This document shows, piece after piece, positions 18,184-64,000 of a stretch of 64,000 nucleotides of DNA (its first letter is position 1; each line of letters begins with the position of its first letter). The notes beneath the pieces were generated by a model. It worked only from the letters and a program-made list of their open reading frames with translations. It was not told the origin of the DNA and searched no databases. Source of the DNA: an uncultured Nitrospirales bacterium (GTDB lineage Bacteria; UBA10199; JADGCS01). A program made the translations under genes and the position numbers. The DNA lies in NCBI GenBank assembly GCA_964526915.1, contig CAZGMS010000072.1:7341-71340 (forward strand), in the 5' to 3' direction.

Positions 18184-18198
18184 TGGAGGTGCCCTTTA

Positions 18199-19089: not shown

Positions 19090-19129
19090 TTTTTCATCCC
19101 CCTAATGGTTCATCCATCTGTTTTCTTGT

Positions 19130-20005: not shown

Positions 20006-20020
20006 CCTTTTTAGTTCTGT

Positions 20021-20551: not shown

Positions 20552-20593
20552 GGCATATTAGGCATCTTGAAAATACAGATTAAAGCACGGCTA

Positions 20594-36966: not shown

Positions 36967-36968
36967 AG

Positions 36969-42419: not shown

Positions 42420-42430
42420 TTTCCCACGTT

Positions 42431-43795: not shown

Positions 43796-43796
43796 T

Positions 43797-44522: not shown

Positions 44523-45645
44523 AATACTTCACAAATGTTTTGGCAAAGTGCCCTGCCATTTTTATAGTGGGGCGAATATCCGACAGTTGACAGTTATTTT
44601 TTACACGCAAACACAGAGTATCTTTGATCACCCCACACATGGCCTTTGGTCTGAGCATACCGTACATGATGTCGCCATTGAATGGCCAAGTGTACCTGAG
44701 TTTGGATTTTCTGCAAACATCGATCGCAGGTTGCTTACCCAAATGCAGATCCACCATCATTTGCGGGAAATTCACCCCCGCAGAAATGGCAAGCTCAATA
44801 GATCCCCAGAGTTTGGCGTTAATTTCCATCAAAAAGGGACGACCTGATTCATCGACCTTGAATTCGACCATGGCCAAACCATGCCACTGCAAAGCATCCA
44901 AAATTTGTTTTCCGTACTCTGCCACCAATGGATTGAAACCAGTTTCAGCCGCCACACTGCGGCCTCCGCTGGGTGGCATTTCACGAATTCTGCGGTGCTG
45001 AAATGTCACACAACATTTGCCATGATCATACAACGCAAAAAAACCACACCCGTATCCCTTTATGTATTCCTGTAACATCGGTAACAAAGACCCTTCCAAG
45101 TTGTGCTTTTCACACAGCGCATGATACTTGCCCAAAAGATCCCTGTGATGCTCAACATAATCGATCACGTTAACACCCGCTTCCTGCTTTCCCTTGATCA
45201 CAAGGGGGAATTTCAGGGTAGCTCCCAATACTGAGATTTCTTCCCTGTTAAGCGGGTAAAAGGTTTTGGGATAAGGAACACCTATCTTTTCAGCAAGCGC
45301 GTACGTTTTTTCTTTTGACATGGCAACATCGATCTTTGATGCTTCAGCAATCACAATGTCAGAACACAGCCTGATCTCATCCTGCAATTCACTCATGATA
45401 CTGTTGGCCTTGGCACCAACAGGCATGACCATGTCTATCTGATATTGTTTTAAAATATCCAGAAAGGTTTGGTTAAACTCCGGCAGTTCATATTTGGGGA
45501 CAATAATTTCATCAGCGCAATATTTTGACAACGCCGCCAATGAACCGGGCCTATGACTCATCACATAGACTGTGTGGCATTCCTTACCCAAAGCCCTCAC
45601 CACGCCGAGCGTGTGTGTGTAGTTTCCATCTGAAACCAATATTTT
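44497..45645 (-). CDS. ATP-grasp domain protein (second copy)
   Basis: LQEYIKGYGCG and FLMEINAKLWGS ATP-grasp motifs. Start moved to MKILVSDG (45645), which abuts the upstream methyltransferase gene. Confidence 0.6.
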   Translation of the reverse strand, partial: KILVSDGNYTHTLGVVRALGKECHTVYVMSHRPGSLAALSKYCADEIIVPKYELPEFNQTFLDILKQYQIDMVMPVGAKANSIMSELQDEIRLCSDIVIAEASKIDVAMSKEKTYALAEKIGVPYPKTFYPLNREEISVLGATLKFPLVIKGKQEAGVNVIDYVEHHRDLLGKYHALCEKHNLEGSLLPMLQEYIKGYGCGFFALYDHGKCCVTFQHRRIREMPPSGGRSVAAETGFNPLVAEYGKQILDALQWHGLAMVEFKVDESGRPFLMEINAKLWGSIELAISAGVNFPQMMVDLHLGKQPAIDVCRKSKLRYTWPFNGDIMYGMLRPKAMCGVIKDTLCLRVKNNCQLSDIRPTIKMAGHFAKTFVKYCVHGQYES

Positions 45646-46406
45646 CATTTGTGAAGAATAAGAAAATAAAATGCTGAACAACGTGGAATCGCAGTTGCCA
45701 AAAATCTGTCCAGCTTATTGAATAGTGCAAATAAGCCACAACGACCTAACACGCGCAACACAGTACTCCAACACAAAAACAGACAAGTGCCATTTGTTTC
45801 CATAATCTTGAAACCCGCATTGCTTACAAGATTTTCGATATCGTGTGCTGAAAACTGCCAATGACAGAATGATTCCGGAGACACCTCTTTGCGATGTAGC
45901 TGTTTTTCGCGTCTCCAATATAAACTATTTTTATTGGGCATGGAAAAAATGATCTTACCATCATTTTTTAGGACACGGCGCAACTCATCTAAAGCCTTGG
46001 GTCTGTTTTCCACATGTTCAATCACTTCACTGCATATGATCAAGTCAACACTATCGCTCTCCAAAGGAATTTCTGTCAAATCTGCTATGACAATTTCTAT
46101 TTTATCCAAGAGTTCTGGATACTTTTCAAAATTCTTTCTCATCCGCACCACTTCTTCCCTTGAAGATTCAAGGGCCACAACACGAACAGCCACTTTACTT
46201 GCCAAATAAGTATTTGGCCCTTTTCCTGCCCCCGCATCCAGAACTGTCCTGGCAGGATATGTTTTCAGATACTGATTGATCAATGTGACCCGTTGACGAT
46301 GTTGATAGCGCCAAACGGAAAACTGATCACCGTAATCATGAAAATCATCCATGAAAGGCAACGGATAGGCATTGGCAATATCGTCAGATTGTGCAACATT
46401 CCACAT
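45645..46406 (-). CDS. class I SAM-dependent methyltransferase
   Basis: 253 aa. Motif I VLDAGAGKGPN and motif II DLIICSEVIEHV. Confidence 0.7.
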   Translation of the reverse strand: MWNVAQSDDIANAYPLPFMDDFHDYGDQFSVWRYQHRQRVTLINQYLKTYPARTVLDAGAGKGPNTYLASKVAVRVVALESSREEVVRMRKNFEKYPELLDKIEIVIADLTEIPLESDSVDLIICSEVIEHVENRPKALDELRRVLKNDGKIIFSMPNKNSLYWRREKQLHRKEVSPESFCHWQFSAHDIENLVSNAGFKIMETNGTCLFLCWSTVLRVLGRCGLFALFNKLDRFLATAIPRCSAFYFLILHK

Positions 46407-46414: not shown

Positions 46415-47155
46415 TTATTCCCTTTTGATGATGATGGCGTGTCCATTCAAATTATGAATGACCACGCGATCATTTTTTTGCATCTGCTCATTCACATACT
46501 GTGTGATCCCCGAGCATCCACTAAAACCAAAATCATCGTAAACGATCATGCCACCGGGAACCAATCTGTCCCAGATCCAATCTACAACCCCTTTTGCTGA
46601 TTCGTACACATCAACATCTATGTGGCACAATCTAAATTTTTCATCTGCCACAAGAACTCCTGTCTGGTCCGGAAAAATTCCTTGAAGAACTTTTACATTG
46701 GCGTAGGAAGCCACCTTCTTTAATAAACATGTCACTAGTTCCTTCGATGTATCTGCATGCTCGCCACCTTTGTATGTGGTGTCATGGACCCCCGCTTTGA
46801 CCACACCGGAGAATGTATCACACAAATACACTTTTTCCCTGATGCCACAATCGGAGGCCCGTCTGGCCAAAAGAGCACCGGTCCCTCCACGCCACACACC
46901 AATCTCTATGATGCTTCCCCCACTCAATTTGGCACACTGGGCCACCAACGCGTACAATTCAAAACACCTATATTTGTCCACCAATGTGTGATCTTTGATC
47001 TGGCCATACAGTGTGATGAATTGTTGATCAGTATTCCAAGGGGCATAGGTAGCCTTGGGGATGATCGTTTCGTATTGGGCATCGCTGGTAGTCACAGTAC
47101 GAAGCATTCGAAATCCAAAATGATTTAGAATATTCTTAATGTGTGTTTTGAACAT
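46415..47155 (-). CDS. TylF / MycF-family (macrocin O-methyltransferase-like) SAM-dependent methyltransferase
   Basis: 246 aa. GSIIEIGVWRGGTG glycine-rich loop and the DxDxY-type metal-binding segment (HIDVDVYES) characteristic of this family. Confidence 0.65.
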   Translation of the reverse strand: MFKTHIKNILNHFGFRMLRTVTTSDAQYETIIPKATYAPWNTDQQFITLYGQIKDHTLVDKYRCFELYALVAQCAKLSGGSIIEIGVWRGGTGALLARRASDCGIREKVYLCDTFSGVVKAGVHDTTYKGGEHADTSKELVTCLLKKVASYANVKVLQGIFPDQTGVLVADEKFRLCHIDVDVYESAKGVVDWIWDRLVPGGMIVYDDFGFSGCSGITQYVNEQMQKNDRVVIHNLNGHAIIIKRE

Positions 47156-50595: not shown

Positions 50596-51675
50596 TTACT
50601 TGAAAGCCGTCGCTCGCACACCTCCAACACCCCAGGTTCTTATTGAACTAAATGCTGCTTCACTGGCCCATAATTCAATTTGTTGATGATTTGCCCCATT
50701 AACATATTGAGGCGTTATACAATCAAACGTATTGATAATGACATACTTCATCAGCAATTTCTTGTCGTGTGTACTTTCCCATAATTTACCATGGGGGTAA
50801 TCGCCAGCGTAGCCTTCCCTTGCATTAAAAAAGATATTCCTAGGATCAATTGGCTCAGTTGTTTTTCGTATTACTTTTGCCATAAAAGGCATTTTGAATT
50901 TGTAGAAAACCTTTTGTAAGCCATATTTCAAAGGAATAAAAACAGGTACAAACCAATTAATAAGTTTCCAGGATGTCTGTGGATGAATCCTTTGAATAAT
51001 CGGCAGAAACCAAGGTTTATAAACAGCAGCATAGGAGGTAAAAGCAATTTCACCATTCTTTTTGAGAAGTCGATACATTGTTTTCAAGGTATCCACGGGA
51101 CTTGGCGTGTGCTGCAACACCTGAAAAAGCCAAATCTTATCAAAAATTCCATTTTCGAAGATGGGTTTATTGATATCCCCCTGAACCACGTCAATGTTGG
51201 GCATCGTCAAAATATCTTCTGAGAAGGTATCGATTGCATTCGACATGTCTATTGATACCAAATGTGCCCCTGTCTTGATCAAATGCTCTGTACAACACCC
51301 TGTTCCTGGTCCCACTTCAAGAATCAACTGCCCTCGCAAATCTTTTGGCCATTCAAAACCAAAAGGACTATATCCATCTCTACCCTGCCCGTCTTGGCTG
51401 TACTTGCCATGTATAACATCATGGTAAAACGGAATGCCTGTATAACTGTCTAAAACAACTTGGCCTGTTTCCCGCCACAATTTTCCCCAGGAGTCAGAGT
51501 AATTGTAACCATCGATAAGCCTCGGGATATAATTGACAACGCGATACTCTGCCAAGCACAATGAGCAAAAAAGAATCGCAGAATATATTTCATCCTTTTT
51601 TTCGACACGTTCTTTGACGTTAAAATGACTGCCACACTTTGGACAGTGGATAAGATCGAGAACTCTTTCTTTCAT
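50596..51675 (-). CDS. SAM-dependent methyltransferase with N-terminal zinc-ribbon (Trm112-like) segment
   Basis: 359 aa. N-terminal CPKCGS...CSLC Cys4 and motif I ILEVGPGTGCCTEHL. Confidence 0.5.
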   Translation of the reverse strand: MKERVLDLIHCPKCGSHFNVKERVEKKDEIYSAILFCSLCLAEYRVVNYIPRLIDGYNYSDSWGKLWRETGQVVLDSYTGIPFYHDVIHGKYSQDGQGRDGYSPFGFEWPKDLRGQLILEVGPGTGCCTEHLIKTGAHLVSIDMSNAIDTFSEDILTMPNIDVVQGDINKPIFENGIFDKIWLFQVLQHTPSPVDTLKTMYRLLKKNGEIAFTSYAAVYKPWFLPIIQRIHPQTSWKLINWFVPVFIPLKYGLQKVFYKFKMPFMAKVIRKTTEPIDPRNIFFNAREGYAGDYPHGKLWESTHDKKLLMKYVIINTFDCITPQYVNGANHQQIELWASEAAFSSIRTWGVGGVRATAFK

Positions 51676-51914: not shown

Positions 51915-53186
51915 TTAATGCAATTCATCTCTATAGTATTGGTCCAAAGTTTTTTGATATTCAATATACTGTCGGGTAAAAGCTTCGGGCTGATAATGGT
52001 CCCTCATTTGCGAACAACGCTTATTGTGCGAAAAAAAAGAAAAATGGTAAAAAAATCGGTTCACAAGCCCTCTGAAAAACAAATTCAGTGATACGCCGCA
52101 TTGCACAGATTTTTTTTCATCAAGATGCCGACTTATGTGTTCAGCAATAATTTTTGATGGGCTTTGATTTTGATTTCCAAAACAGGCTGTAATCAGCCTT
52201 TCTCTTTGCTCTCTCTTGGCTTCGAATTCTTTGATTGTTTTTGAAACAAACAACTCATCTAAATAATCCAGCAGTTGTTTGTTTGTTTGTGCAGAAATGG
52301 AAGACTCCCAAATTTCAACATATTCAGGATGATCCTGACATAGATGAATGGTTGTCTTGCCCTCCAACCACGCATCAACAGCCATTGTGGATTCATAAAC
52401 CAAAACAACATCTGCTAAGGCAATCAATTGATAAACGGGCATCTCATCATGAAGAATCAGCACATTATTGTATTGATCAAAATGATGAGAAATCTCCGTC
52501 TTTTCCTCATTTTCAGTAGCCGGATGGTATTTAAGAATCAAAAGTTTGTTGGGATACTGTTTTGCAACGGACTGCAAATAGTGTATGGTGGTTTCTTTTT
52601 GTTTGAGCAGGGCATCTCCCCGTACCCCTTGTTCATGTTGTCGTGCAACAATATCAAATGACCAACCTACATAAAAAATGATTCCATCGTATTGATCTCC
52701 AAGCAATTTACTACGATCAAACAAAACATTTTTAAAAATGTGGTATTTTTCGTGACCAGCACTACCCGAAACGCTCAGGATGTCCTTCAGATAAGGAAAC
52801 CGTTCCAAAGACCAGCGATACGAATCTTCATTCCATAGAAACCATTTGTCCACCGTAGGCTTTCGTTCACGATTATTACCCCAAAGATACAAGTCAGTTA
52901 ACTCTTTGCGAAATACTCCTTCTGCATGCAAGGCCACAGCATAAATACCGCGCTGTTGCGCATATTTTGTTACTTTGTAAATTGCATAGGCACCCGTACA
53001 ACAATTTGTTAGCAATACTTTCGGTTTCAACAAATCAATCGCTGTGTAATCAAAAATACTCCGCACTTCTACATGCAACTTGAATTTTTGACGTAACAAA
53101 TAGATGGTAGGAATCAGGGCTTGTACATCACGCCCGACCATCCCCCAGATCATCACCAACACATCACATTTGTTGATTTTTGCCAT
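51915..53186 (-). CDS. hypothetical protein, possibly GT-B-fold glycosyl/phosphotransferase-like (TagF / KpsC / sialyltransferase-like)
   Basis: 423 aa. C-terminal LILKYHPATE ... ADVVLVYESTMAVDAWLEGKTTI resembles the HP...E/G-rich C-domain of GT-B transferases. No confident family call. Confidence 0.25.
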   Translation of the reverse strand: MAKINKCDVLVMIWGMVGRDVQALIPTIYLLRQKFKLHVEVRSIFDYTAIDLLKPKVLLTNCCTGAYAIYKVTKYAQQRGIYAVALHAEGVFRKELTDLYLWGNNRERKPTVDKWFLWNEDSYRWSLERFPYLKDILSVSGSAGHEKYHIFKNVLFDRSKLLGDQYDGIIFYVGWSFDIVARQHEQGVRGDALLKQKETTIHYLQSVAKQYPNKLLILKYHPATENEEKTEISHHFDQYNNVLILHDEMPVYQLIALADVVLVYESTMAVDAWLEGKTTIHLCQDHPEYVEIWESSISAQTNKQLLDYLDELFVSKTIKEFEAKREQRERLITACFGNQNQSPSKIIAEHISRHLDEKKSVQCGVSLNLFFRGLVNRFFYHFSFFSHNKRCSQMRDHYQPEAFTRQYIEYQKTLDQYYRDELH

Positions 53187-53204: not shown

Positions 53205-54461
53205 TCACTTAGAATAGAAATGAGAAACCTTGAATAAGGCCTCTGCAATATCAGCAATGTCCTTTTCAGAATAGTTTTCGTGAATATTTAAATTGAAATG
53301 CGTATCAGTCACTTGTGTAATGTTATCAAATTTGAATACTGGTTGACGCTCACCATGATAATCTTTACACTGCCAAGGAAAACCACTTTTCCCAAACACA
53401 CTTTGATTTTTGAACCATGGATTTTCGCACGGAACATACCGATAAGTTTCTGTTACCGGCAACCCTTCGGCCTTGAGTGCCAAAGCAAATTCTTTTTTGG
53501 AACCATTTAGATTCTCAATGGGGACTTTCATGCGAAAAAACCAGAAGCTGGGTTCTACATCAACTTCAAATTGTCCAAAACACACAGAACCACAGCCTTG
53601 AAGTCTTTTATTAAGAGAATCTGCAAGCTGGCGTCTTTGCATGATGTGATAACTAAGTTTTTCCAGTTGAACAAACCCAATCGACGCCGGCAATTCACTT
53701 AAATTACAATTCAGACCAGCAACAGCATTGTGAACACCATCAATTTTACCTGTCTGATTAAAGGGTTTACCACGATCTGCAAATCGTTTTACTTTCCAAT
53801 ACAGTTCTTCATCTTTTGTATAGACGACCCCGCCCTGCCCCCCTGTGCAATGAAGCTTTGAAAACATTGTAGAAAATATTGCAATATCACCAAACGTCCC
53901 AACCTTTTGCCCTTGATACAAAGCACCATGAGATTGTGAACAATCTTCAATAACGTATAATCCATGTTTGTTAGCCACAGCCATCACAGGCTCCATATTC
54001 ACTGGTTCACCACCAATGTGTGCAACAATAATAGCCTTTACCCGCGGTGTGATCACACGCTCAATTTCTTCTGCGCACGTATTGTACGAATAAGTTGTGC
54101 TGTCTGCCATGATGGGGACACATCCTGCAAATAACACTGGCATCACTCCACCAGCATCAGTGATGGGTGGAACAATCACTTCGGATAACGCATCAAGTTC
54201 CAACGCTCCCAAAGCAACAAACAACGCATTTGTCCCTGAATTTACCCCATCGGCAAAGCCTCCACCCATCCACTCTGCAAAGGCTTTCTCGTAACGTTGC
54301 TCCCATTTCCCATTATAGCCAAATGCATCGCCCGATGTGATGGCTTCATCCAACACCTTAAGAACGACTTGTTTTTCCTTTTCAGTCATCAGATTCCTTT
54401 TGGGGAACGGCATTTTGCGGACAGGCTCACCACCATGAACAGCTAGTTTCATAATACTCAT
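53205..54461 (-). CDS. DegT/DnrJ/EryC1/StrS-family aminotransferase (fourth copy)
   Basis: 418 aa. GVNSGTNALFVAL, EDCSQSHG and the lysine in FSTMFSKLHCTGGQGG. Confidence 0.75.
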   Translation of the reverse strand: MSIMKLAVHGGEPVRKMPFPKRNLMTEKEKQVVLKVLDEAITSGDAFGYNGKWEQRYEKAFAEWMGGGFADGVNSGTNALFVALGALELDALSEVIVPPITDAGGVMPVLFAGCVPIMADSTTYSYNTCAEEIERVITPRVKAIIVAHIGGEPVNMEPVMAVANKHGLYVIEDCSQSHGALYQGQKVGTFGDIAIFSTMFSKLHCTGGQGGVVYTKDEELYWKVKRFADRGKPFNQTGKIDGVHNAVAGLNCNLSELPASIGFVQLEKLSYHIMQRRQLADSLNKRLQGCGSVCFGQFEVDVEPSFWFFRMKVPIENLNGSKKEFALALKAEGLPVTETYRYVPCENPWFKNQSVFGKSGFPWQCKDYHGERQPVFKFDNITQVTDTHFNLNIHENYSEKDIADIAEALFKVSHFYSK

Positions 54462-55393
54462 ATTGATTTCTTTGAGTTGAAGTTATGTAGAACACTTTTT
54501 ATTTTCCAAAAAAATGGTACTTTTGGAAGGTTGCCATACCCAACATAATCACATACCCGACATAAATCGCTACAATTTCGATTTTGTCGAGACAGTTCTC
54601 TTCTCATTTTTTGAAACTTTGTCCCAAACCAGACTTCAAACAATGAAGCCTTGTTAAGATCTCCCATTTCATTCATATTATAAAAGTCATTGATACAAGA
54701 ACAAACCATTCCGCTAGGTTTAATATACATTATCTCATACACTTGATCACAGGGTGCTTGGCAGACCTCTTTATAAAATTGCTTTACATTCCCAGCGCGA
54801 CTCGTCCACGTTTCCTGATAGGTTCTATTGATATGTGTAATTTTCTTTACCAAACTATCATCCAATTGGGATAACATATTCAAGTTTCGCTCACAGGCCT
54901 TGTCATCATATGAATTTAAATATATATGATTCAAACCATCATGAAACAACTGAGAAACTCTGTGTGTTGTTAATAAATCACCATTTGTTGTAATAAATAT
55001 CCAAGCCCTGGGAAGTTTTTTTCGGGCATATTTTAAAAATTCATTAAATCGTTTATCGGTTAATGGCTCATTAATCTCATATAAGCTCAAAATCCCCGAA
55101 TATGAAATTGAAGCCAATTCATTAATAATACGTTTAAATAACTTCTCATTGATATTCTGCTTGACTGGCGACCTTTCCAGCCCATAATGACAAAAAGAAC
55201 ACTTTCGTGTGCACATATAATTGGTCTGAATTTTAATGTGCTTAAAAAGATCTTTGTCGGCTAATCCTTGTTTGCGCCTAAAAGACTGATAGGGATTCCG
55301 AATATTCCTAATATACCAATCTCTCAAAAAGACTTTCGTCCTGATACGTAAAGGAATATTATTTTTCCAATCATCACTCATAATAAGAAACAT
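54458..55393 (-). CDS. radical SAM protein with C-terminal SPASM/twitch-like Cys cluster
   Basis: 311 aa. CTRKCSFC (CX3CX2C) radical-SAM cluster motif, then C-terminal CSCINDF and CSDLCRVCD cysteine clusters. Confidence 0.65.
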   Translation of the reverse strand: MFLIMSDDWKNNIPLRIRTKVFLRDWYIRNIRNPYQSFRRKQGLADKDLFKHIKIQTNYMCTRKCSFCHYGLERSPVKQNINEKLFKRIINELASISYSGILSLYEINEPLTDKRFNEFLKYARKKLPRAWIFITTNGDLLTTHRVSQLFHDGLNHIYLNSYDDKACERNLNMLSQLDDSLVKKITHINRTYQETWTSRAGNVKQFYKEVCQAPCDQVYEIMYIKPSGMVCSCINDFYNMNEMGDLNKASLFEVWFGTKFQKMRRELSRQNRNCSDLCRVCDYVGYGNLPKVPFFWKIKSVLHNFNSKKSI

Positions 55394-55394
55394 T

Positions 55395-56645
55395 CTATCT
55401 CTTGATTACACTCGAAACCCAAAAATCATTGCCAAAATGATAATTATTGTTTTGTAAAAAAGAAACTTTTTGTGGAATATATTCGCTGGCTATCATAATA
55501 TACGGTTTAGAAGGAAACTCACTTCTATCCCGCAGTTGTTCTTGCAAATAACAACTTTTATTTAACAGTGTACATTTTTTTTCGGTCCGCTCACACTCTA
55601 TAAATCCAGAAACCTGAATACCACTTTTAACTAAGCGATCATAGAGAACAGTTGCCATTTTTTCTGTGCCCCATATCAACAAAGGTCTATCGGGATCATA
55701 AAAATCCATTTTAACATCCAAAATATCCATAATTTTCGGATAGGGTCGGTTGTTTATGAGATAGGGAATAGCCTGTTGCATACATTCTTTACAAAACGAC
55801 TGACATTTTTTTGCCTTCTTCATTTCCTCATAAGAGTAATCATAAAGATCACCAAAGGCATAACCCGACATCTCCTTTGTCATCATGCAACAGGTGAGCA
55901 GTCTGCTTTTCTCATCGATAAACAAAACCTCATGATAAGGACATGTGTATGATGGTGGCACTTGTTTTTTGACTTGCTCGGGATAATAGAATATCAGGTC
56001 CTGTGACAACTTTTTCAATTCATCATAGGGCATTTCATTTGCCAGATATGCCTTCAACCTCCTCAAATCGGCTATACCAGCGTATGTAGGAGAAACACAC
56101 AAATTCTGTTCCTTGGCAAAGGCCAGCATATCTGGTATCTCATCAATATTAAATTGATAGACATGATATCTGATTTCTGCTTTTCCACGAAAACCACAAC
56201 GCCGATAATTATCCAGCATCTGAACAATATTATCTTTTATTTTATGAAAACTGAATCCATGTATTCTGTCATAGGAGTTTTGAGAAAAACCTGACATGGA
56301 AAAAACCAAAGCCCTTAAATTTCTTAAAGCCTGTTCATTTTCAAAATACAGTGGGCGTGAGGCATTAGTGCTCACAATGTATTCGTGACCTTCATCATTT
56401 AAAAATGCTGCTATCTCTCCAAATTGTGGATTCAACATTGGTTCACCCCAATTGTACAAGAAAAAGTAGGCATCAGCAGTGATGACATTATTTTTTTTTA
56501 GATAAAAAACAGCTTTTTTAAATTCATCACAAGTAATATACTGCTTTGATGTATTGCTATTATCATGAGATTCAATCCCTGTCGCACACCAGGGGCAGAG
56601 GGCATTACATTTACCTGATATTTCAAAAACAACATGATTATACAT
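55395..56645 (-). CDS. radical SAM protein with SPASM-like auxiliary cluster domain and extra C-terminal domain
   Basis: 416 aa. CNALCPWC (CX3CX2C), later TCCMM and CQSFCKEC Cys clusters, then a roughly 110-aa C-terminal extension. Confidence 0.65.
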   Translation of the reverse strand: MYNHVVFEISGKCNALCPWCATGIESHDNSNTSKQYITCDEFKKAVFYLKKNNVITADAYFFLYNWGEPMLNPQFGEIAAFLNDEGHEYIVSTNASRPLYFENEQALRNLRALVFSMSGFSQNSYDRIHGFSFHKIKDNIVQMLDNYRRCGFRGKAEIRYHVYQFNIDEIPDMLAFAKEQNLCVSPTYAGIADLRRLKAYLANEMPYDELKKLSQDLIFYYPEQVKKQVPPSYTCPYHEVLFIDEKSRLLTCCMMTKEMSGYAFGDLYDYSYEEMKKAKKCQSFCKECMQQAIPYLINNRPYPKIMDILDVKMDFYDPDRPLLIWGTEKMATVLYDRLVKSGIQVSGFIECERTEKKCTLLNKSCYLQEQLRDRSEFPSKPYIMIASEYIPQKVSFLQNNNYHFGNDFWVSSVIKR

Positions 56646-56667
56646 GGTAGCTTCCTCCTATGATGAT

Positions 56668-57489
56668 TTATCTCACCTTTCTCATCCGGGCCATGGCACA
56701 TCCATTTGACTGAGACAAGTTACTGGCAGATACATTTGATAATTTTTCAAATCCCGAAACTTCTTCCCAAAATTCGTGCTCGGTAAATTGGAAATATCTT
56801 TCTTCAACCAATTCAAAATCCTTATGCCTGATGATGTTCATCCAACTCTCTTGCTCATACTCCCACTGGACACAATAGTAGCCAAGACTATCCTGTATGA
56901 CAACAGGTCCGCCCTTACCCATAGGAACCGTGATAAATAATTCTCCCTGCTTTTTAAGGATTTGACTGGTCTTATCCATAACAAGTCTATCTGTATGGGG
57001 CGCGCGATCTGTACACACGTCTTGAATATTTTTCTTTCTGACAAATACGCTTTTGTCATCACCCTGGGACGAGACATCATAACCAATGTGTTCTATCACA
57101 GATATACAGGTAACCACGTCAAAATTATTTTTTGGCAATTGATAATATCGATAATCACCACAATATTGATTCAGAGCCATCACTGAGGGCCACCACTCTT
57201 GCGGATATCTGGATTTAACGGCATCAAGTTTCACAATATCTATGAAGTGCAAATCAAGCCCCAATATTTCTTTTGTAGCCAACAAAGTCCCCATATAGTC
57301 CAAACTGGATAACGCTGTGCCAATATCCAGCAACCGACAGCCCTGAAAATCTACCAGATGTGAGGTTAACCAAGGGACTTCTATGCATCTGGCTGAATGT
57401 GACTGTCTGATGTCTGTTTTCCCCCAGCACTGCTCTCGTCGTATGATGGCCACGCAATAATCTAATATTCGCTTTGTCGTTGTGTCCAC
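56668..57489 (-). CDS. methyltransferase-like protein (class I SAM-MTase fold, divergent)
   Basis: 273 aa. Motif I-like LLDIGTALSS and motif II-like FDVVTCISVIEHIG. Confidence 0.45.
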   Translation of the reverse strand: MDTTTKRILDYCVAIIRREQCWGKTDIRQSHSARCIEVPWLTSHLVDFQGCRLLDIGTALSSLDYMGTLLATKEILGLDLHFIDIVKLDAVKSRYPQEWWPSVMALNQYCGDYRYYQLPKNNFDVVTCISVIEHIGYDVSSQGDDKSVFVRKKNIQDVCTDRAPHTDRLVMDKTSQILKKQGELFITVPMGKGGPVVIQDSLGYYCVQWEYEQESWMNIIRHKDFELVEERYFQFTEHEFWEEVSGFEKLSNVSASNLSQSNGCAMARMRKVR

Positions 57490-57518
57490 AGTTTACCTCT
57501 CCACTCTGATAGGGTTAA

Positions 57519-59147
57519 TCATTGAGAATAGCTTTCCATATCCACATGAAGTGTTTCCAAATAATAACGCCATTGAAACGAACCCTTTTCCAAGACCTTC
57601 TTCGCCCTTTGTACCAATTGTTGACAATCTTCTGTCAGGTTTCGAGTTTTCATGATTTGAGCAAGAGCCAATAGAGCAAATACATGGTCTGGCACCATAT
57701 CCAATACATATCGAAAATCGCGCTCTGCCTGTGCCAAAGATTCTTTTGTGTTCTGTTTCAGATTTCGATTGTTGATAAAATTATTTTTGAGGTTGGCCAT
57801 GTAACTTAAGTCACCAAGTTGCTTACTCGAATAATCAATGTGATCAAACTCCTGGGCAAAATAAAACTCTCCCGCCCCCTCGCTAAAACCATCTATCAGC
57901 CGCTGTTCAATACAGTCATCAAAGAGAGCTGCCCCGGGAAGAGGCTTAAAACAATAAAATCCCTTCCAGTCCGTATCGAGTGTTTCCGCAAAAGCCAGGG
58001 TGTTCTTAACACTCTTGAGATCCTCGAAGGGAAAACCGGTAATGAAAAAGGCATTTATAAATGCTGACCCGTTTTTCCTGATCAGTTTGACCACATTTAG
58101 TGTTTCTTCAACCGTGAGAGGCTTACGAATCTTCTTCAGTATTTCATTGGATCCAGACTCCGCCGCCAAATTAAAAAACGCAATCTTGCTGGCATACATT
58201 TTTTTTATTATCCGCTCATCATTGAGTGTGCGAATGGACAAGCCACCACTGGACAGCCAACTGACATCCAGTGTAGCAAGGGCATCCAGCAACTGTTCAA
58301 ACCATTTTTTGTCGACACTGATATTCTCATCATTAAAGATGATAATATTTACGTCGTAATTGTCTTTGAGGTATTGAATTTCATATACGATATTTTCTAC
58401 GTGACGTTTGCGCCATCTTCTACTCCAGAAACTGGGAGATGTACAAAAGGTGCATGCATTGGGACAGCCACGAGAAGCTGTAATCGATGCAGGTCTCCAC
58501 TCATGCTTATCCTTCAAACGGTACAACAAATTGCGACCTTCCCGAAAATAATATTTGAAATGAGTGTCTTCCCAGGGCAGTCGTTTGACATCACAATATC
58601 CGTCCCAGAATTTCTTACGTGGATTACGAATCACCTGATTCCCTTCGCGATGAACAATGCCTTCTATGTCACTCATCTGCCCGTTTGAATTCATAGCATC
58701 AATGAGATCAGACAAACCCAATTCACCTTCCGACAAGATGATATAGTCAACCAACTCATCTTCCATACATTTGGCTGTGAGATGATGAGGATAATGCCCG
58801 CCAAAAACTAGGACGATTTTCGGGTTAATCTTTTTTATCAACGAGGCCATTTTGTGAAAAACAGGTATGCCCTGATAATACAATGTGGCCATGGCTATCA
58901 TATCGGGCTGATATTCTAAAATGTACCTCTTCAGGATATCCTCAAGGGAGTCTCCTGTTAAGAATTTCATTTCAATATTGAGATCGACAAACAGGACACC
59001 AACATCCTGACGTTTCTTGATATAATCATACACGTACAGCAAGCCCAGTGGAGGCTCAAAATAGGCATATCCTGATTGTCTTCCCAATTTTAATACGGAA
59101 GGATCCGGCGGATTCAGAAACAAGATTTTATTGATAATTTTATTCAT
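57519..59147 (-). CDS. B12-binding domain radical SAM protein (class B radical SAM, candidate C-methyltransferase)
   Basis: 542 aa. N-terminal B12-binding Rossmann-like region (IAMATLYYQG ... VLVFGGHYPHHL), CPNACTFC radical-SAM motif, and a helical C-terminal extension. Confidence 0.75.
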   Translation of the reverse strand: MNKIINKILFLNPPDPSVLKLGRQSGYAYFEPPLGLLYVYDYIKKRQDVGVLFVDLNIEMKFLTGDSLEDILKRYILEYQPDMIAMATLYYQGIPVFHKMASLIKKINPKIVLVFGGHYPHHLTAKCMEDELVDYIILSEGELGLSDLIDAMNSNGQMSDIEGIVHREGNQVIRNPRKKFWDGYCDVKRLPWEDTHFKYYFREGRNLLYRLKDKHEWRPASITASRGCPNACTFCTSPSFWSRRWRKRHVENIVYEIQYLKDNYDVNIIIFNDENISVDKKWFEQLLDALATLDVSWLSSGGLSIRTLNDERIIKKMYASKIAFFNLAAESGSNEILKKIRKPLTVEETLNVVKLIRKNGSAFINAFFITGFPFEDLKSVKNTLAFAETLDTDWKGFYCFKPLPGAALFDDCIEQRLIDGFSEGAGEFYFAQEFDHIDYSSKQLGDLSYMANLKNNFINNRNLKQNTKESLAQAERDFRYVLDMVPDHVFALLALAQIMKTRNLTEDCQQLVQRAKKVLEKGSFQWRYYLETLHVDMESYSQ

Positions 59148-59187
59148 CTTTTAACCACAATATTTATCAGTTATCCTGACAAGGAAA

Positions 59188-60594
59188 TCAGACAACCTGT
59201 GTTTTGAGATAATTTTTTAGCAAGACAATTTTCGACAATCTTTTTTCATACTCAAAACTGCGCACCAATAAATGCAAGTTCTTCAAGAAGAGAAATATTT
59301 TGTTGGGTGGCAATTTTAACAGCCAGAAAATCATTCTCTCAAAATAGGGATATTTAATGAGATAAAAGAACAATTTATCCAGATTAATAAATATTTTTTT
59401 CTCTTTAGACATGAGAAGTGAATCATTAAAATTCAATAAATGAATTTCTTCCAGTGTAGGTATCTTTTTGATATAACCCTTTTCAAAAGCGTAATGAGTC
59501 ACTCTGAGGCCAGGATAAAAAACCAGTACATTGGATGAATAGGAATCAGCCTTAATTTCACGGCACAGTCTTATGGTGTCCATGGCTTCTTCAAAGGTTT
59601 CACCTGGCCAGCCAAAAATGATATCAATACCAATCCGAATACCCTGCTCTTGAATCAGGCGACAGGCCCTAATAATCTGTTCGTTTGTGGTGAGGCGACC
59701 GGCGACTTCATGTCGCACACGATCATTTCCCGATTGAATACCAAAAGTGATCCGGTCGCATCCTGCTTTTTTTAAAAGCACGGCGGTTTCCGCATCAATA
59801 TTTTCAACCCGCAAATTACATAGAAACCCTGGCAGTCTGGCTTGCGCATAATCACGTAAAAACTCCTTAAACCACCTCTTATCCGCGTTGAGTGTTCCAT
59901 CCTGAAAATGAACCCATTCTATTCCATAAGTATTTTTTACGTATTTTATTTCCTCCAGCGTTTCCTGAATGGAACGCAATCGCCAGTATTTCTTTTTGAA
60001 ATGACGTGATAATTCTTTGTTGTAACAAAATGTACAACCATAGGGACAACCACGAGAGGCAATGAAGATTTTCACGGGACTTTCTTGAAGAACTTTATAT
60101 TTATAATACACGTCCCGATTGGGGAAACAATTTTCACTCACATCCACAAGATCACATTCTTCATTCTTATGTGCCTGGGCATGCGCATCTAAATAACACA
60201 GTCCCTTTATGGAATCTAACCCTTCACCCCTTTGGTGTTTTAAAATAAATTCTGGTAAGGATTTTTCTCCATCACCTCTAAAAACATAATCCACTGCTGG
60301 CCTGCTGATAATTTCTGGATATATCAGGGCAAAGGGCCCGCCCACCAACGTTACAGACTCTGGTAATACGGTTTTGATTTTCTTCAAATATTCAAAGGCA
60401 AAATTCTCTTCGCCAATAAATAAACTGTAGACAACATAATCGGGTTTGTAGGCTACAATTTTGACATAGAAATCTTTTTCTAGGTCATGAATAAAAACTT
60501 CACAGTGAATGTCTTTTTCCTTTAAACTCCCTGCCAAAAAATGAACACTGAGTTTTTCGTAGGCTTCTTTTTGTACGAAAGCGACTTTTACCAT
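59188..60594 (-). CDS. B12-binding domain radical SAM protein (class B radical SAM)
   Basis: 468 aa. B12-binding region (VVYSLFIGEE ... VTLVGGPFALIYPE), CPYGCTFC radical-SAM motif and GIQSGNDRV (the G-x-E/Q-S-G radical-SAM motif). Confidence 0.75.
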   Translation of the reverse strand: MVKVAFVQKEAYEKLSVHFLAGSLKEKDIHCEVFIHDLEKDFYVKIVAYKPDYVVYSLFIGEENFAFEYLKKIKTVLPESVTLVGGPFALIYPEIISRPAVDYVFRGDGEKSLPEFILKHQRGEGLDSIKGLCYLDAHAQAHKNEECDLVDVSENCFPNRDVYYKYKVLQESPVKIFIASRGCPYGCTFCYNKELSRHFKKKYWRLRSIQETLEEIKYVKNTYGIEWVHFQDGTLNADKRWFKEFLRDYAQARLPGFLCNLRVENIDAETAVLLKKAGCDRITFGIQSGNDRVRHEVAGRLTTNEQIIRACRLIQEQGIRIGIDIIFGWPGETFEEAMDTIRLCREIKADSYSSNVLVFYPGLRVTHYAFEKGYIKKIPTLEEIHLLNFNDSLLMSKEKKIFINLDKLFFYLIKYPYFERMIFWLLKLPPNKIFLFLKNLHLLVRSFEYEKRLSKIVLLKNYLKTQVV

Positions 60595-60605: not shown

Positions 60606-61508
60606 TTATCTTGTTTGATGTGGTACCGGTCTGTAAGCATCCAGTTTACGTGTCCCCCAGAGACTTGATACCACCAAACCACATAACCGTACCCAACCAT
60701 GAAGCACAAAATAAGGCACATATTTTACTTGATATTTCAATCCACAATAGACAGCTCTTTTGATAGGGTATGTATAAATCAAATGTTGTATCACGGCCCA
60801 GCGTCTCTCAGGATGTGCCATGATGAACTTGTAGTCCCCCGCCCCATAAGAAAGCCAACGACTAACCAATTCACCAAAATTATCTATGTATTTACGGTAT
60901 GTTTTACCTGTCCCCACGACAAAATGGCCGCCCTGTCTTTTCAGTCGATAGGCCAGATCAGAATCTTCAGAAGCGGAACCATAACGAACATCATTGTTTT
61001 TCATGGCTTCTATGAGGGCCCGTTTTTGATATAAAGCGGGCCGACCAACCATTTGAATATTTTGTTCTTTCTGCTTCTTATCCAAATCACGAATCACCTG
61101 CATGCTCATCCAAAAAGCCTGTTCCCAGTATTTTGATTTTTTTCCTGTTTTTTCCGATAAATCACAATGCCTGGCCTGTGTCGCCACGGCACCTGATCTT
61201 TCCAAATCCAGCATCAGGTCACGCAAACACCACCGATCCAACTGATCATCAGCATCAACAATGGCAACGTAAGAAGCCTCAGAAGAGGCGGCATAAACTC
61301 CTGTATTTCGTTGTATAACCAAACCTTTCTCTGATTCAATGACCTTAATAGCAGTAAACTCTCTGGCCAATAAGGTGGTGCGATCGACTGAACCACCATC
61401 GACTACAATGATCTCTAATGGGTCATTATCCAAACAAGACTGAATACAAGCAGAAATATTCTTTTCTTCGTTAACAGTGCGAATAATAACCGTAATCGGT
61501 AGAGACAT
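60606..61508 (-). CDS. glycosyltransferase, GT2 family (GT-A fold)
   Basis: 300 aa. ITVIIRTVNEE ... IIVVDGGSVDRT ... VDADD DxD-type motifs. Confidence 0.75.
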   Translation of the reverse strand: MSLPITVIIRTVNEEKNISACIQSCLDNDPLEIIVVDGGSVDRTTLLAREFTAIKVIESEKGLVIQRNTGVYAASSEASYVAIVDADDQLDRWCLRDLMLDLERSGAVATQARHCDLSEKTGKKSKYWEQAFWMSMQVIRDLDKKQKEQNIQMVGRPALYQKRALIEAMKNNDVRYGSASEDSDLAYRLKRQGGHFVVGTGKTYRKYIDNFGELVSRWLSYGAGDYKFIMAHPERRWAVIQHLIYTYPIKRAVYCGLKYQVKYVPYFVLHGWVRLCGLVVSSLWGTRKLDAYRPVPHQTR

Positions 61509-62044
61509 TATGAATGGCTCCCGTGATCAGACAATATCGATAATATCCGCGAATCCCACCACCTGCCATCATAAAAATAATTATCTCTGAGCAACCCATC
61601 CAGTTTAAATCCCAACTGAGTATACAATTCATATTTCTTCACATCGAACTCGTATATTTCTGTCCAGATTTTGTGTAGATTTAACTCACCAAAGGCATAC
61701 TGGAACAGAACTTGGCAAGCATCTTCTGCAAAACCGGCATCATCAATATAGGAATTTTGCCAGCCAATGTAGAGCGATAAATCGGCATGACGATGCACCC
61801 AATTGATGTAACACAAACCACACACTCCAACCAGTTCATTGGTCTCAAGATCACGGACAGCAAACATCAAGGTCCGATCATCTGCCAACACTTTTTCGCG
61901 GTACCATTTATCCTGACTTTCGCGGTCCAACTCACGGTATTCCCTAAAATGCTTTCGAAACTCTTCGTTATTGCGCCACAGACGCATGGTCTCTAGATCC
62001 TCTTTTTCAACGGTGGTCAACGCCACTTTTTTTCCCTTTAACAT
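61508..62044 (-). CDS. GNAT family N-acetyltransferase (PseH / RimL-like)
   Basis: 178 aa. GNAT motif A region LVGVCGLCYINWVHRHADLSLYI ... QLGF. Lies directly downstream of the NeuB-like synthase, the arrangement seen for pseH-pseI. Confidence 0.65.
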   Translation of the reverse strand: MLKGKKVALTTVEKEDLETMRLWRNNEEFRKHFREYRELDRESQDKWYREKVLADDRTLMFAVRDLETNELVGVCGLCYINWVHRHADLSLYIGWQNSYIDDAGFAEDACQVLFQYAFGELNLHKIWTEIYEFDVKKYELYTQLGFKLDGLLRDNYFYDGRWWDSRILSILSDHGSHS

Positions 62045-63111
62045 AACTCAATATCTCCCACCATGACGGCCTCATCCTCCGCGACATCCCTTTTCAGCAC
62101 TTTGCCAATAAGTGTGTGGACGGCAAACGGTTGAACCCCTCCCTGCGTAAATGGTCGCAGTGGAAACAAATTTTCTTTCGTCAACACATGTCCTTTTTTC
62201 AGATCGCGCACATATCTTAGACCCCGTCTTTGCAAACAAACAGTATCATTCTCATTGGCCTCAACCCTTTTAACACCATCACCCAAGGCCAAATAGACTT
62301 CTTGAGCACGACAAACCATTTCCCTCCACGATTTGGGATTCATGGCAAACCTGTGATCGGGCCCTTCGCGCGAGTTATCATCAGTAAAATGTTTTTCAAA
62401 AACCACAGCTCCCAAAGCGACAGCACCCAACACAGTCGCGTGACCATGAGTGTGATCCGAAAGCCCCAACAAGACATTGGGATATCTTTTTTTGTAATCT
62501 TTCAAAACATTCAAATTGATGCATTTGAAATTTTCAGGACTTGCTGTATAATTTGTATTGCACTGCATGAGCACAATATCCTGAGTGTGCTTAAATAAAC
62601 AATGCATGGCTCTTTCCACATCTTCAATTGTGGAAGCCCCTGTCGCCAGCATCACAGGTTTACCTTTTTTGGCTATATACTCAATCATTTCCAACCAGGT
62701 TATATCTCCAGAACCGATCTTATAGACTGAAACATAGGGATCCACATGATCGACCGTTTCAAAGTCATAGGGACTTGTAAAATATTCTATCCCCACTTCA
62801 TCGCATTTATGTTTTAATTTTGCTGTCCATTCCCGGGGTAGACTCGCGTCTTGATACACCTCATAAACTGGCTTTTTCCATTTTGCTTGATGAGATAATT
62901 GACCACCCAATGACTCAAAACCATTCCGACTCACAATTTTTCTCGCAACAAAATTTTGAAATTTGGCCGCATCAGCCCCAGCTTCTTTGGCCAATTCAAT
63001 CAATTTGAGTGCCCGTTGCAAATCACCATCATGGTTCGCCGCAATATCGGCAATAAAATACAGATTTTCTCCTTCTCCAATTTTTCTTTTGCCTACAGTG
63101 ATCGTTTTCAT
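62038..63111 (-). CDS. N-acetylneuraminate / nonulosonic acid synthase family protein (NeuB / PseI / LegI-like)
   Basis: 357 aa. YFIADIAANHDGDL, GADAAKFQ and the HTHGHATV metal-binding region, followed by a C-terminal SAF/antifreeze-like domain. Confidence 0.85.
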   Translation of the reverse strand: MKTITVGKRKIGEGENLYFIADIAANHDGDLQRALKLIELAKEAGADAAKFQNFVARKIVSRNGFESLGGQLSHQAKWKKPVYEVYQDASLPREWTAKLKHKCDEVGIEYFTSPYDFETVDHVDPYVSVYKIGSGDITWLEMIEYIAKKGKPVMLATGASTIEDVERAMHCLFKHTQDIVLMQCNTNYTASPENFKCINLNVLKDYKKRYPNVLLGLSDHTHGHATVLGAVALGAVVFEKHFTDDNSREGPDHRFAMNPKSWREMVCRAQEVYLALGDGVKRVEANENDTVCLQRRGLRYVRDLKKGHVLTKENLFPLRPFTQGGVQPFAVHTLIGKVLKRDVAEDEAVMVGDIELC

Positions 63112-64000
63112 GCAAATACCTTCCTGTAATCCTCAACAAGCGCCTTGATCCCTTCCTCAATAACGGGCACTGAGGTCACAAGAGACGTGAATTTGCTAAC
63201 ATCGAGCGTGGTATCACGAGGCCTTTTTGCCTTAAACAGCATGTGTTCACTGGTGGTCGAACGAATAAGAGATGTTGGCCTCATGCACTCACGGGCCAAC
63301 TTGATCAGAAAATCGTACTTGCTAAAATGATCCTGACTACCCACATGCAAAACTCCACGACAATCAGAAGACAATAACTGTTTAATGGTCCCAGCCAACT
63401 GCCTAATGTATAGGGCATTAAACATCACATCAGTGAACCCTCCAATGGATTCCCCTTTTAATAAATGCGTCAAAGCCCATTCCGCCAAGGATCCTCCGGG
63501 AGGGTTTTTGAAACCATAAATGTTTGTTCTTAAGACCAGTGGTTTTCGTGATTCCTGCAAAACCACTTGCTCCCCTGCCAACTTGGTGCGGGCGTAAACA
63601 TTGAGAGGCTTTGGCTCATCAGTTTCAGAATAATTACCCTGCTCCCCATCAAACACGGAATCTGTGGAGATGTAAACAAAGCTTGTTTGGGGACAATGAT
63701 GCGCCAACGTATATGTTATTCCCTCATGGACATCACCAGCAACCTGCGGGTGTGTTTCGCAATATTCAAGATCAACCAAAGCCAAACAGTGGATGATGAT
63801 GTCCGGTTCTATTCGATCCAAATACATTTTTAGCTGGTCGCTGTCTGTGAGATCAAAATGTTTTTGATGGGTCGCGTCTGCCCACAACGTCTGCAGGCGA
63901 TCACACGCATAGACTTCATAGTTCAAATCTTCCTGTAATATGGGCCCAACCGCGTTGGCCAGCATCCCGGCAGAACCCGTGATCAAAATGCGTTTTACAC
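63108..64000 (-). CDS. SDR-family nucleotide-sugar reductase/epimerase (RmlD-like), 5' end cut by the window edge
   Basis: The reading frame stays open to the window edge: the reverse complement of 63961-64000 encodes ...KRILITGSAGMLA, a Rossmann motif. The M in the ORF track is therefore an internal TTG/Leu. YARTK catalytic motif present. Confidence 0.55.
   Translation of the reverse strand, partial: VKRILITGSAGMLANAVGPILQEDLNYEVYACDRLQTLWADATHQKHFDLTDSDQLKMYLDRIEPDIIIHCLALVDLEYCETHPQVAGDVHEGITYTLAHHCPQTSFVYISTDSVFDGEQGNYSETDEPKPLNVYARTKLAGEQVVLQESRKPLVLRTNIYGFKNPPGGSLAEWALTHLLKGESIGGFTDVMFNALYIRQLAGTIKQLLSSDCRGVLHVGSQDHFSKYDFLIKLARECMRPTSLIRSTTSEHMLFKAKRPRDTTLDVSKFTSLVTSVPVIEEGIKALVEDYRKVFA

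Follow-up and report, generated by a model that had tools for sequence, protein, structure and literature searches.

A block of five genes encoding four radical S-adenosylmethionine (SAM) proteins and one methyltransferase-fold protein, designated A to E herein, was analyzed in a 64,000-nucleotide stretch of DNA from an uncultured Nitrospirales bacterium (GCA_964526915.1, contig CAZGMS010000072.1; the whole stretch is referred to as the window). The block sits within a sub-operon for making, tailoring, activating and transferring a nonulosonic acid (NulO), and its position inside this sub-operon, which resembles that for pseudaminic acid (Pse), suggests that A to E probably tailor the NulO or its direct precursor. 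More tentatively, and with rather less than even confidence, we propose that the product would represent a new class of radical-modified NulO made without O2, in which two new families of B12-dependent radical-SAM enzymes would introduce C-methyl or C-alkyl groups, a couple of BtrN-like dehydrogenase and DegT would carry out a late amination, and D, representing a new radical-SAM family with a nucleotide-binding domain of its own, would effect further processing. The earlier note on this DNA, made from its letters, had reported five consecutive genes at 54458-60594 in a glycan operon; open reading frames (ORFs) were found at exactly those coordinates, and the block can now be assigned specifically to the module of NeuB, cytidylyltransferase and NulO transferase rather than to the glycan locus at large. 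The genes concerned are given below in the order of their transcription.

63108-64000, minus strand: RmlD-like NAD(P)-dependent sugar reductase (Pfam RmlD_sub_bind, 151.3 bits)
62038-63111, minus strand: NeuB-family NulO synthase, phosphoenolpyruvate (PEP) condensation (Pfam NeuB and SAF)
61508-62044, minus strand: PseH-like GNAT acetyltransferase (Pfam Acetyltransf_3 and Acetyltransf_4)
60606-61508, minus strand: soluble protein of the family 2 glycosyltransferase (GT2) fold, termed GT2x (Pfam Glycos_transf_2, 81.7 bits)
59188-60594, minus strand: A, class B (B12-binding) radical-SAM protein, 468 aa, CPYGCTFC
57519-59147, minus strand: B, class B (B12-binding) radical-SAM protein, 542 aa, CPNACTFC
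56668-57489, minus strand: C, protein of the class-I methyltransferase fold whose SAM motif I is degenerate, 273 aa, GTG start
55395-56645, minus strand: D, twitch/SPASM-like radical-SAM protein with an extra C-terminal Rossmann domain, 416 aa, CNALCPWC
54458-55393, minus strand: E, BtrN-like twitch/SPASM radical-SAM protein, predicted alcohol dehydrogenase, 311 aa, CTRKCSFC
53205-54461, minus strand: DegT-family aminotransferase (Pfam DegT, 229.9 bits)
51915-53186, minus strand: transferase of NulO derivatives, BFO_1060 family (NCBIfam NF046086)

Gene functions were called with Pfam gathering thresholds, NCBIfam curated cut-offs, and the best matches in the PDB. A, B, D, and E were all identified as members of the radical-SAM superfamily (PF04055) by a CX3CX2C motif together with a Pfam score above the cut-off of 29.5, and the four Cys core motifs reported earlier (CPYGCTFC, CPNACTFC, CNALCPWC, and CTRKCSFC) were each read in the translations. 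An independent assembly (locus L001; handles of this form denote individual loci) gave identical calls for the five genes. The intergenic gaps were 11 bp between GT2x and A, 40 bp between A and B, 29 bp between B and C, 22 bp between C and D, and 1 bp between D and E, while the E and DegT genes share a 4-bp overlap and further overlaps join RmlD to NeuB, NeuB to GNAT, and GNAT to GT2x. Terminator-like sites were not in excess in the operon. The transcription order thus reconstructed is CTP_transf_3, Aminotran_3, the RmlD-like gene, NeuB, GNAT, GT2x, A-B-C-D-E, DegT, and the gene at 51915-53186, downstream of which lie a methyltransferase gene and then a flippase gene. The flanks that had been read from the letters, DegT on one side and GT2, GNAT and NeuB on the other, were borne out by Pfam and NCBIfam.

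This packing bears directly on the idea that the block instead matures a ribosomally made, post-translationally modified peptide (RiPP), a cofactor, or a lipid, in the manner of BchE, HpnJ, PqqE, or the sactisynthases. Weak NCBIfam similarity to PqqE, sactipeptide maturases, BchE, HpnJ, and RiPP C-methyltransferases speaks for it, but all the scores for these RiPP, cofactor, and lipid families were several-fold under the cut-offs, and membership in BchE, HpnJ, and PqqE was rejected on this basis. With gaps of at most 40 bp, no precursor gene fits between the genes, as had already been pointed out from the spacing of 1-40 bp, and every homologous locus inspected showed a sugar-nucleotide context, none of them a peptide, tetrapyrrole, or hopanoid one. 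We consequently regard a role in RiPP, cofactor, or lipid maturation as extremely improbable. The preference stated earlier for a sugar or acyl substrate over a peptide one is supported as regards the sugar, given that the homologues stand among NulO genes and that there is no space for a precursor.

The genes surrounding the block define the NulO module. The NeuB protein matched Pfam NeuB (PF03102) with 247.7 bits and carries a C-terminal SAF domain (36 bits), and was assigned to the NeuB family on these grounds. Its NCBIfam scores were below the cut-offs for both NeuB (274.5 versus 400) and PseI (244.7 versus 340.25), and its best PDB matches were the pseudaminic acid synthase 8h2c (5e-46) and NmeNeuB (2e-44), such that neither the NCBIfam nor the PDB scores discriminated between Pse, legionaminic acid (Leg), and neuraminic acid (Neu) types. 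The GNAT protein scored 63.4 bits against NCBIfam PseH (cut-off, 93.1), and the RmlD-like reductase, whose true length is 299 aa with its start just past the window end, scored 153.6 against rmlD (cut-off, 224). At locus L088, the order was CTP_transf_3 (253 aa), the class-III aminotransferase Aminotran_3 (436 aa), the 299-aa reductase, and NeuB, which places the cytidylyltransferase and the class-III aminotransferase immediately upstream of the reductase, outside the window. NCBIfam scores for the operon were 148.6 with PseC (cut-off, 423.5) and 28.2 with PseF (cut-off, 205.7). For the class-III aminotransferase, gentamicin C-6' aminotransferases and glutamate-1-semialdehyde aminomutases scored equally well, which fits a sugar-carbonyl substrate as a sequence-based prediction.

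At the other end of the operon, the protein encoded at 51915-53186 was placed in the BFO_1060 glycosyltransferase family by NF046086 (224.8 versus a cut-off of 200), and BFO_1060 itself is a homologue of the Tannerella forsythia transferases of Pse and Leg derivatives (PMC5420450). GT2x is without a hydrophobic segment and may be either a glycosyltransferase or a nucleotide-sugar hydrolase; on account of the missing segment, an assignment as an ArnC-type membrane polyprenyl-phosphate glycosyltransferase was rejected. A further pointer was provided by TIGR04321, an NCBIfam model of 510 positions named "spiro-SPASM protein", in which a cytidylyltransferase-like domain is fused to a radical-SAM/SPASM domain, so that the two domain types are naturally joined elsewhere. 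The operon cytidylyltransferase (L088:60-821) matched positions 20-225 of this model, and E and D matched positions of about 232-332; the fusion may be taken as a Rosetta-stone hint of a link between the cytidylyltransferase and E or D.

The association of the block with NulO genes was found again in other lineages. Close full-length orthologues of D (41-52% identity) occur in Desulfarculus baarsii DSM 2075, in Desulfovibrionaceae, and in metagenomes, and their loci hold PseB, an aldo-keto reductase (AKR), CTP_transf_3, Aminotran_3, an RmlD-like reductase, NeuB, GT2x, and C. The PseB of the D. baarsii locus is a true one (482.7 bits versus a cut-off of 407.75), and on this model PseB and AKR are presumed to lie upstream of the window in the operon studied here. 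In addition, scanning metagenomes with an alignment of C yielded 19 loci (non-redundant and 9 kb or longer), which contained GT2x (16 loci), NeuB (15), CTP_transf_3 (15), the RmlD-like reductase (13), PseB (10), and the class-III aminotransferase (10). Relatives of B (38-55% identity) had NeuB and the CTP_transf_3 cytidylyltransferase within 10 kb in all eight contexts inspected, namely, the window, D. baarsii, L006, L098, L172, L173 (Candidatus Staskawiczbacteria, of the candidate phyla radiation, CPR), L174, and L175 (38% identity). Because the gene arrangement is conserved in unrelated lineages, it is not due to chance.

These same contexts weigh upon a competing explanation, in which the radical-SAM enzymes act on another component of the polysaccharide, such as another hexose or a substituent of the acyl, amino-acid, or organic-acid kind, and are merely co-located with the NulO genes. 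The window is indeed a mosaic of many sugar pathways, an organic-acid sub-cluster included, and distant D-family loci are mostly without a detectable NeuB. The five genes are nevertheless translationally packed between NeuB, GNAT, and GT2x on one side and DegT and the NulO transferase on the other, the relatives of B stand beside NeuB and CTP_transf_3 throughout, and C accompanies NeuB in most of its loci, in lineages that vary in the glycan genes around them. Mere co-location is hence considered unlikely, and action on the NulO or its direct precursor is preferred.

Comparison of the homologous cassettes distinguished three forms. The first is a bare core (L122, L131, L134, and L136). The second additionally holds a TylC3-like sugar C-methyltransferase and a GMD-like short-chain dehydrogenase/reductase (SDR), often with a GFO dehydrogenase (L090, L095, L099, L113, and L116), and the third is the radical-SAM form, in which D is joined by B, A, and/or E with DegT (the window, L002, L004/L007, L006, L089, and L098). 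No locus showed both D and the TylC3-like module; D occurred with an AKR in four of five loci, and the GFO dehydrogenase went with the C-methyltransferase form. These gene contents suggest that the pathway family regularly has the option of a C-branching or redox step. The relatives came overwhelmingly from anaerobes, comprising Desulfobacterota, Clostridia, Dehalococcoidia, methanogens, rumen Opitutales, and CPR, and the form without radical-SAM genes has a soil-metagenome member.

Four radical-SAM enzymes in a single locus, which had been considered unusual, turned out not to be unique, as three or four radical-SAM genes are also carried by the NulO loci L006, L172, and L173; the quartet is a recurring theme rather than a one-off. 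As a separate observation, L172 and L173 are Pse-like clusters in which a B orthologue is accompanied by a 331-aa SPASM radical-SAM protein and a 608-aa B12 radical-SAM protein, with one more radical-SAM gene in L172, and both feature fusions of NeuB with a cupin (503 aa) and of CTP_transf_3 with DUF218.

In Pfam, E matched Radical_SAM with 29.6 bits and SPASM (PF13186) with 35.9 bits (cut-off, 21.5) over model positions 1-67 of 67. Against the structure of BtrN (4m7t), it aligned with an E-value of 7e-24 over residues 47-285, which span the core and the auxiliary-cluster domain, and wherever a cluster Cys could be located in the printed alignment of E and BtrN, it coincided. For this comparison, the ligands of the BtrN auxiliary cluster were taken to be those known for the BtrN structure. 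By homology and cluster Cys residues alike, E accordingly has the features of a BtrN-type twitch dehydrogenase, and the analogy with BtrN drawn in the earlier note was confirmed for this protein. Meanwhile, Pfam annotation of the whole window found no 2-deoxy-scyllo-inosose (2-DOI) synthase or aminoglycoside genes. Since there is no 2-deoxystreptamine or aminoglycoside context, E, although predicted to be BtrN-like in its working, is not a BtrN orthologue.

The adjoining DegT protein is divergent, scoring about 150 bits with each of the LegC, PseC, and RfbH models, all far under cut-off, and its PDB neighbours comprised perosamine synthase, the 8-amino-3-deoxy-D-manno-octulosonic acid (Kdo8N) transaminase KdnA (5k8b, 4.5e-39), and 2-DOI aminotransferases. 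This type of DegT is confined to loci that also possess E (the window, L004/L007, and L089) and is missing from the other 17 of the 19 C loci. E and DegT are therefore gained and lost together and behave as a pair, a feature that the earlier note did not contain. Taken together with the homologies of the two proteins, the pairing gives an even or slightly better chance that they constitute an oxidation-transamination couple.

As for A and B, the earlier description of both as B12-binding radical-SAM proteins agreed with the Pfam results. A matched B12-binding (PF02310) with 37.2 bits (cut-off, 32.1) over residues 14-116 and Radical_SAM with 91.3 bits, and B matched B12-binding with 53.0 bits over residues 29-148 and Radical_SAM with 72.9 bits; both possess the class B architecture, with an N-terminal B12-binding domain before the radical-SAM core. 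The two proteins share 24% identity. In NCBIfam, the best match of A was TIGR04013 (121 versus a cut-off of 251), and those of B were Sden_1168 (145 versus 575) and BchE (141 versus 481). Orthologues of A (56% identity) were found in L006 and L093, and there were about eight close clusters at 50% identity among 1.84e9 representatives, whereas B belongs to a tight group of orthologues sharing 45-62% identity, beyond which identity falls off sharply. Neither a cobalamin riboswitch nor any other Rfam family was detected in the window.

For A as for B, the closest solved relative is QCMT (9ccb; 2e-12 for A), a glutamine C-methyltransferase, and because of this relationship, methylation is the favored chemistry: on sequence grounds, the most probable function of A and B, which we put at about an even chance, is to methylate an unactivated carbon. 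A different outcome, in which A and/or B would alter the carbon skeleton by a non-methylating reaction such as ring contraction, rearrangement, C-C or C-S bond formation, or cyclization, has some grounds of its own. Neither protein reaches the cut-off of any methylase model, the top NCBIfam matches of B include the cyclase BchE as well as HpnJ, A has among its PDB matches OxsB (4e-11), which contracts a ring, and AprD4 (1e-9), a dehydratase, and several non-methylating class B members are listed in a 2026 review of B12-dependent radical-SAM enzymes (PMC12931638). On the other hand, characterized class B enzymes are mostly methylases, the C-methylase QCMT is the best solved match, and the conventional sugar C-methyltransferase in the cassettes free of radical-SAM genes suggests that C-methylation is part of the pathway family. 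We thus consider non-methylating chemistry a distinctly less probable option, with perhaps a modest share of the likelihood, and retain C-methylation as the working assignment of A and B.

C gave a marginal Pfam result, with Methyltransf_11 at 21.2, equal to the cut-off, and Methyltransf_23 at 22.3, below 27. Its motif I reads LDIGTALSS (family consensus, LDIGFxLSS) in place of E/DxGxGxG, and the acidic residue D84 is invariant. A Rossmann-like methyltransferase fold was recognized. The family is small (58 clusters). C would be a SAM-dependent O- or N-methyltransferase, or else a methyltransferase-fold enzyme of other function.

D matched Radical_SAM with 34.3 bits (cut-off, 29.5), and no SPASM match was found by Pfam. 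Of the two SPASM-type proteins counted earlier, E is thus borne out by Pfam, and the assignment of D is a putative one that draws on its Cys residues and fold. Four Cys residues (C235, C252, C285, and C288) are invariant in the family. The AlphaFold2 model was confident (pLDDT, 93.4), and the nearest folds of this predicted model were SuiB, MoaA, BlsE, anSME, viperin, SkfB, DesII, and BtrN, all of SPASM/twitch type; BlsE and DesII among them are nucleoside- or nucleotide-sugar enzymes. The four invariant Cys residues and the fold together suggest a putative auxiliary cluster. The last 100 residues, which are PglD_N- or CoA-binding-like, resemble the N-terminal Rossmann domains of WbpM- and PglD-type enzymes. 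Given the putative four-Cys auxiliary cluster and this nucleotide-binding-type domain, a possible role for D, suggested by the sequence and the model and held with distinctly less than even confidence, is to dehydrogenate or epimerize, by radical chemistry, a sugar linked to UDP or CMP.

The D family comprised 72 clusters among 5.8 billion proteins, and D itself was 100% identical to a partial protein of the metagenome-assembled genome "Bdellovibrionales bacterium RIFOXYB2_FULL_36_6". Relatives of D at 30-46% identity were encoded by 510 stretches in GTDB species genomes, mostly of anaerobes. In the Firmicutes relatives, the Rossmann domain is N-terminal instead of C-terminal, and some genomes hold two or three D-family copies per locus.

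On the basis of these predictions, the following pathway can be envisaged. A PseB-type dehydratase and the RmlD-like reductase would furnish a 6-deoxy-hexosamine, which NeuB would condense with PEP, and GNAT, the class-III aminotransferase, C, and GT2x would complete a non-canonical Pse-like NulO, C belonging to the core pathway together with GT2x. E would abstract a hydrogen atom from a carbinol carbon and convert a secondary alcohol of the NulO, or of the 6-deoxy-hexosamine precursor, to a ketone, with its auxiliary cluster accepting the second electron as in BtrN. DegT would then transaminate the ketone, the net result being the replacement of a hydroxyl by an amine without O2 or NAD. A and B may place methyl groups on unactivated carbons, either in the sugar itself or in its N-acyl groups. 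The Rossmann domain of D might hold the nucleotide of a UDP- or CMP-linked intermediate while D oxidizes or epimerizes it by a radical route; in the cassettes free of radical-SAM genes, a GFO-type NAD dehydrogenase, a TylC3-like C-methyltransferase, and an SDR would replace D. Finally, the cytidylyltransferase would activate the product with CMP, the BFO_1060-family enzyme would move the NulO onto the repeat unit, and the neighbouring flippase would export it for a Wzx-dependent surface polysaccharide.

Several observations weigh against this proposal. No NulO enzyme of the operon reached the NCBIfam cut-off of a canonical family (PseI, NeuB, PseH, PseC, or PseF), PseG was not found, and PseB was not seen in the window, past the end of which the operon extends. 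The canonical CMP-pseudaminic acid pathway, defined as PseB/C/H/G/I/F at equivalog score, was thus not recognized here, and the sub-cut-off scores together with the lack of PseG imply that the sugar is not a textbook Pse, Leg, or Neu. As to the chemistry, none of the named class B families (Sden_1168, PhpK, BchE, HpnJ, HpnR, QCMT/MJ_0865, KedN5, and TsrM) was reached at its cut-off by A or B, class B enzymes also carry out reactions other than methylation, and we know of no C-methylated NulO that has been described. The contexts of A other than the window number just two (L006 and L093). In the wider D family, NeuB was detected in only 5 of 60 loci, and D-type enzymes as such are therefore not NulO-specific; many of the wider-family loci without NeuB do hold SDR, DegT, methyltransferase, or glycosyltransferase genes. 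The mutual exclusion of D with the TylC3-like module and with the GFO dehydrogenase is based on five to seven loci per class and is not statistically significant.

The window as a whole is a single co-directional surface-polysaccharide region, with two Wzx-type flippases, Wzz, WecA-like and PglC-like initiating transferases, many glycosyltransferases, a PglF/E/D-type set, a PglF-like dehydratase at 1442-3328, RmlA and RmlB, WecB, a FemAB-like protein, and two ATP-grasp proteins. Pfam supported five further class-I methyltransferases in the window, instead of the six counted before (50596-51675, 46415-47155, 45645-46406, 29524-30321, and 28708-29505), and the heavily C- and O-methylated sugars that had been proposed from them are a conjecture. 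A flagellin-glycosylation island was also considered and rejected, as the window has no flagellin motif and contains Wzx, Wzz, and initiating transferases instead; a flagellin gene was present within 10 kb in 3 of 86 D-family loci (L001-L086), those of Hungatella, Roseburia, and Clostridium tertium.

Other parts of the region have features of their own, all on the minus strand. An organic-acid sub-cluster at 13513-21736 consists of ATPgrasp_Ter, a 387-aa thiamine pyrophosphate enzyme, MmgE/PrpD, an aldo-keto reductase, a 296-aa protein without a Pfam match, the alpha and beta parts of a class-I fumarase/tartrate dehydratase, and a PF15617 C-C bond lyase, and may make an unusual acyl or carboxylate substituent. 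The genes at 38129-45681 encode a polysaccharide deacetylase, a FemAB-like transferase, a DegT protein, a family 4 glycosyltransferase, DUF7033, a PHP-domain protein, and a second ATPgrasp_Ter, and look like a set for amino-acid or peptide decoration of a sugar. At 33203-37020, in the middle of the biosynthetic locus, lie genes for a heparinase II/III-like protein and for a 735-aa protein in which a zinc-type alcohol dehydrogenase is fused to a GFO/IDH/MocA oxidoreductase. An AAA_14/DUF4143 ATPase at 131-1276, at the downstream end of the co-directional array, probably marks the edge of the polysaccharide region. ORFs of 275-453 aa at 8403-9230, 10392-11753, and 18199-19089 had no Pfam match at E <= 0.01, and the one of 453 aa, which adjoins a flippase, could be a Wzy-type polymerase.

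NulOs, among them the sialic, pseudaminic, and legionaminic acids, shape bacterial surfaces to a major degree, with roles in immune recognition, flagellar assembly, and phage adsorption. To our knowledge, their biosynthesis and tailoring have so far proceeded exclusively by polar NAD, pyridoxal phosphate, and acyl-CoA chemistry. In the literature that was searched, which lay outside the subscription literature, no paper joined radical SAM with nonulosonic acid, and nothing relevant was found for radical SAM with pseudaminic acid, legionaminic acid, or NeuB. The sole near-mention was a Campylobacter fetus subsp. testudinum catalogue of phase-variable genes, in which two radical-SAM genes appear among methyltransferase, formyltransferase, and dehydrogenase genes (PMC6321876). 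The 2026 review of B12-dependent radical-SAM enzymes cited above contains neither "sugar", "polysaccharide", nor "sialic", and describes no class B substrate of the polysaccharide or NulO kind (PMC12931638). The link of radical-SAM and B12 enzymes to NulO biosynthesis is thus recurrent and apparently undescribed.

If the proposal is true, NulO biosynthesis would here have its first known radical-SAM steps and its first known B12-dependent ones, spread over Desulfobacterota, Bdellovibrionota, and CPR, and radical-SAM and cobalamin chemistry would reach a new class of substrate. New NulO structures would then be predicted in anaerobes and uncultured lineages including CPR, NAD-dependent sugar oxidation and C-branching would gain a counterpart that works anaerobically, comparable to BtrN versus NeoA, and new tailoring enzymes would become available for glyco-engineering. 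The prediction would be directly testable in D. baarsii DSM 2075, which is cultured and fully sequenced and has B, C, and D.

In comparison with known systems, the operon shares with the canonical CMP-Pse pathway a synthase of the NeuB/PseI family, a PseH-like GNAT, and CTP_transf_3, as well as PseB in the orthologous locus of D. baarsii, but it departs from that pathway in having no detectable PseG and in adding the RmlD-like reductase, the class-III aminotransferase, GT2x, C, and up to four radical-SAM enzymes. The Tannerella forsythia transferases (Tanf_01245, TFUB4_00887, and BFO_1060) have their counterpart in the gene at 51915-53186, which stands in a Wzx/Wzz polysaccharide locus and not in one for protein O-glycosylation. 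The TylC3-type enzymes (Methyltransf_13/Methyltransf_14) with GFO and SDR fill the matching part of otherwise homologous cassettes and, unlike the radical-SAM form, employ polar keto-sugar chemistry with NAD. A and B have the N-terminal B12-binding domain and CX3CX2C core in common with the class B C-methyltransferases GenK, GenD1, Fom3, and MoeK5 and with the solved enzymes QCMT/MgmA, TokK, TsrM, and OxsB, whereas they lie far under all curated models, and B constitutes a tight family of its own that was found only in NulO clusters.

The closest parallels for E and DegT are two couples of oxidation and transamination. In the KdnB/KdnA system, by which Shewanella makes 8-amino-Kdo, a hydroxyl of the ulosonic acid is oxidized and the product is then transaminated by a DegT-family enzyme. 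E and DegT would follow a similar logic, and KdnA is among the best solved matches of DegT; the oxidant here, however, would be the radical-SAM protein E and not a metal-dependent alcohol dehydrogenase. In the formation of 2-deoxystreptamine for butirosin, the radical-SAM twitch dehydrogenase BtrN is followed by the DegT aminotransferase BtrS/BtrR, the same succession as proposed for E and DegT. The present DegT is translationally coupled to E and counts 2-DOI aminotransferases among its PDB neighbours, and E differs from BtrN in its additional Cys residues and full-length Pfam SPASM match. Unlike in butirosin biosynthesis, the context lacks a 2-DOI synthase and comprises NeuB, the cytidylyltransferase, and the NulO transferase, and the substrate of E would presumably be a NulO or a 6-deoxy-hexosamine and not an aminocyclitol. 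The radical-SAM toolbox of the aminoglycosides, namely BtrN/BtrS, the GenK-type methylases, and the GenB-type aminotransferases, would thus appear here grafted onto a Pse-like NulO pathway.

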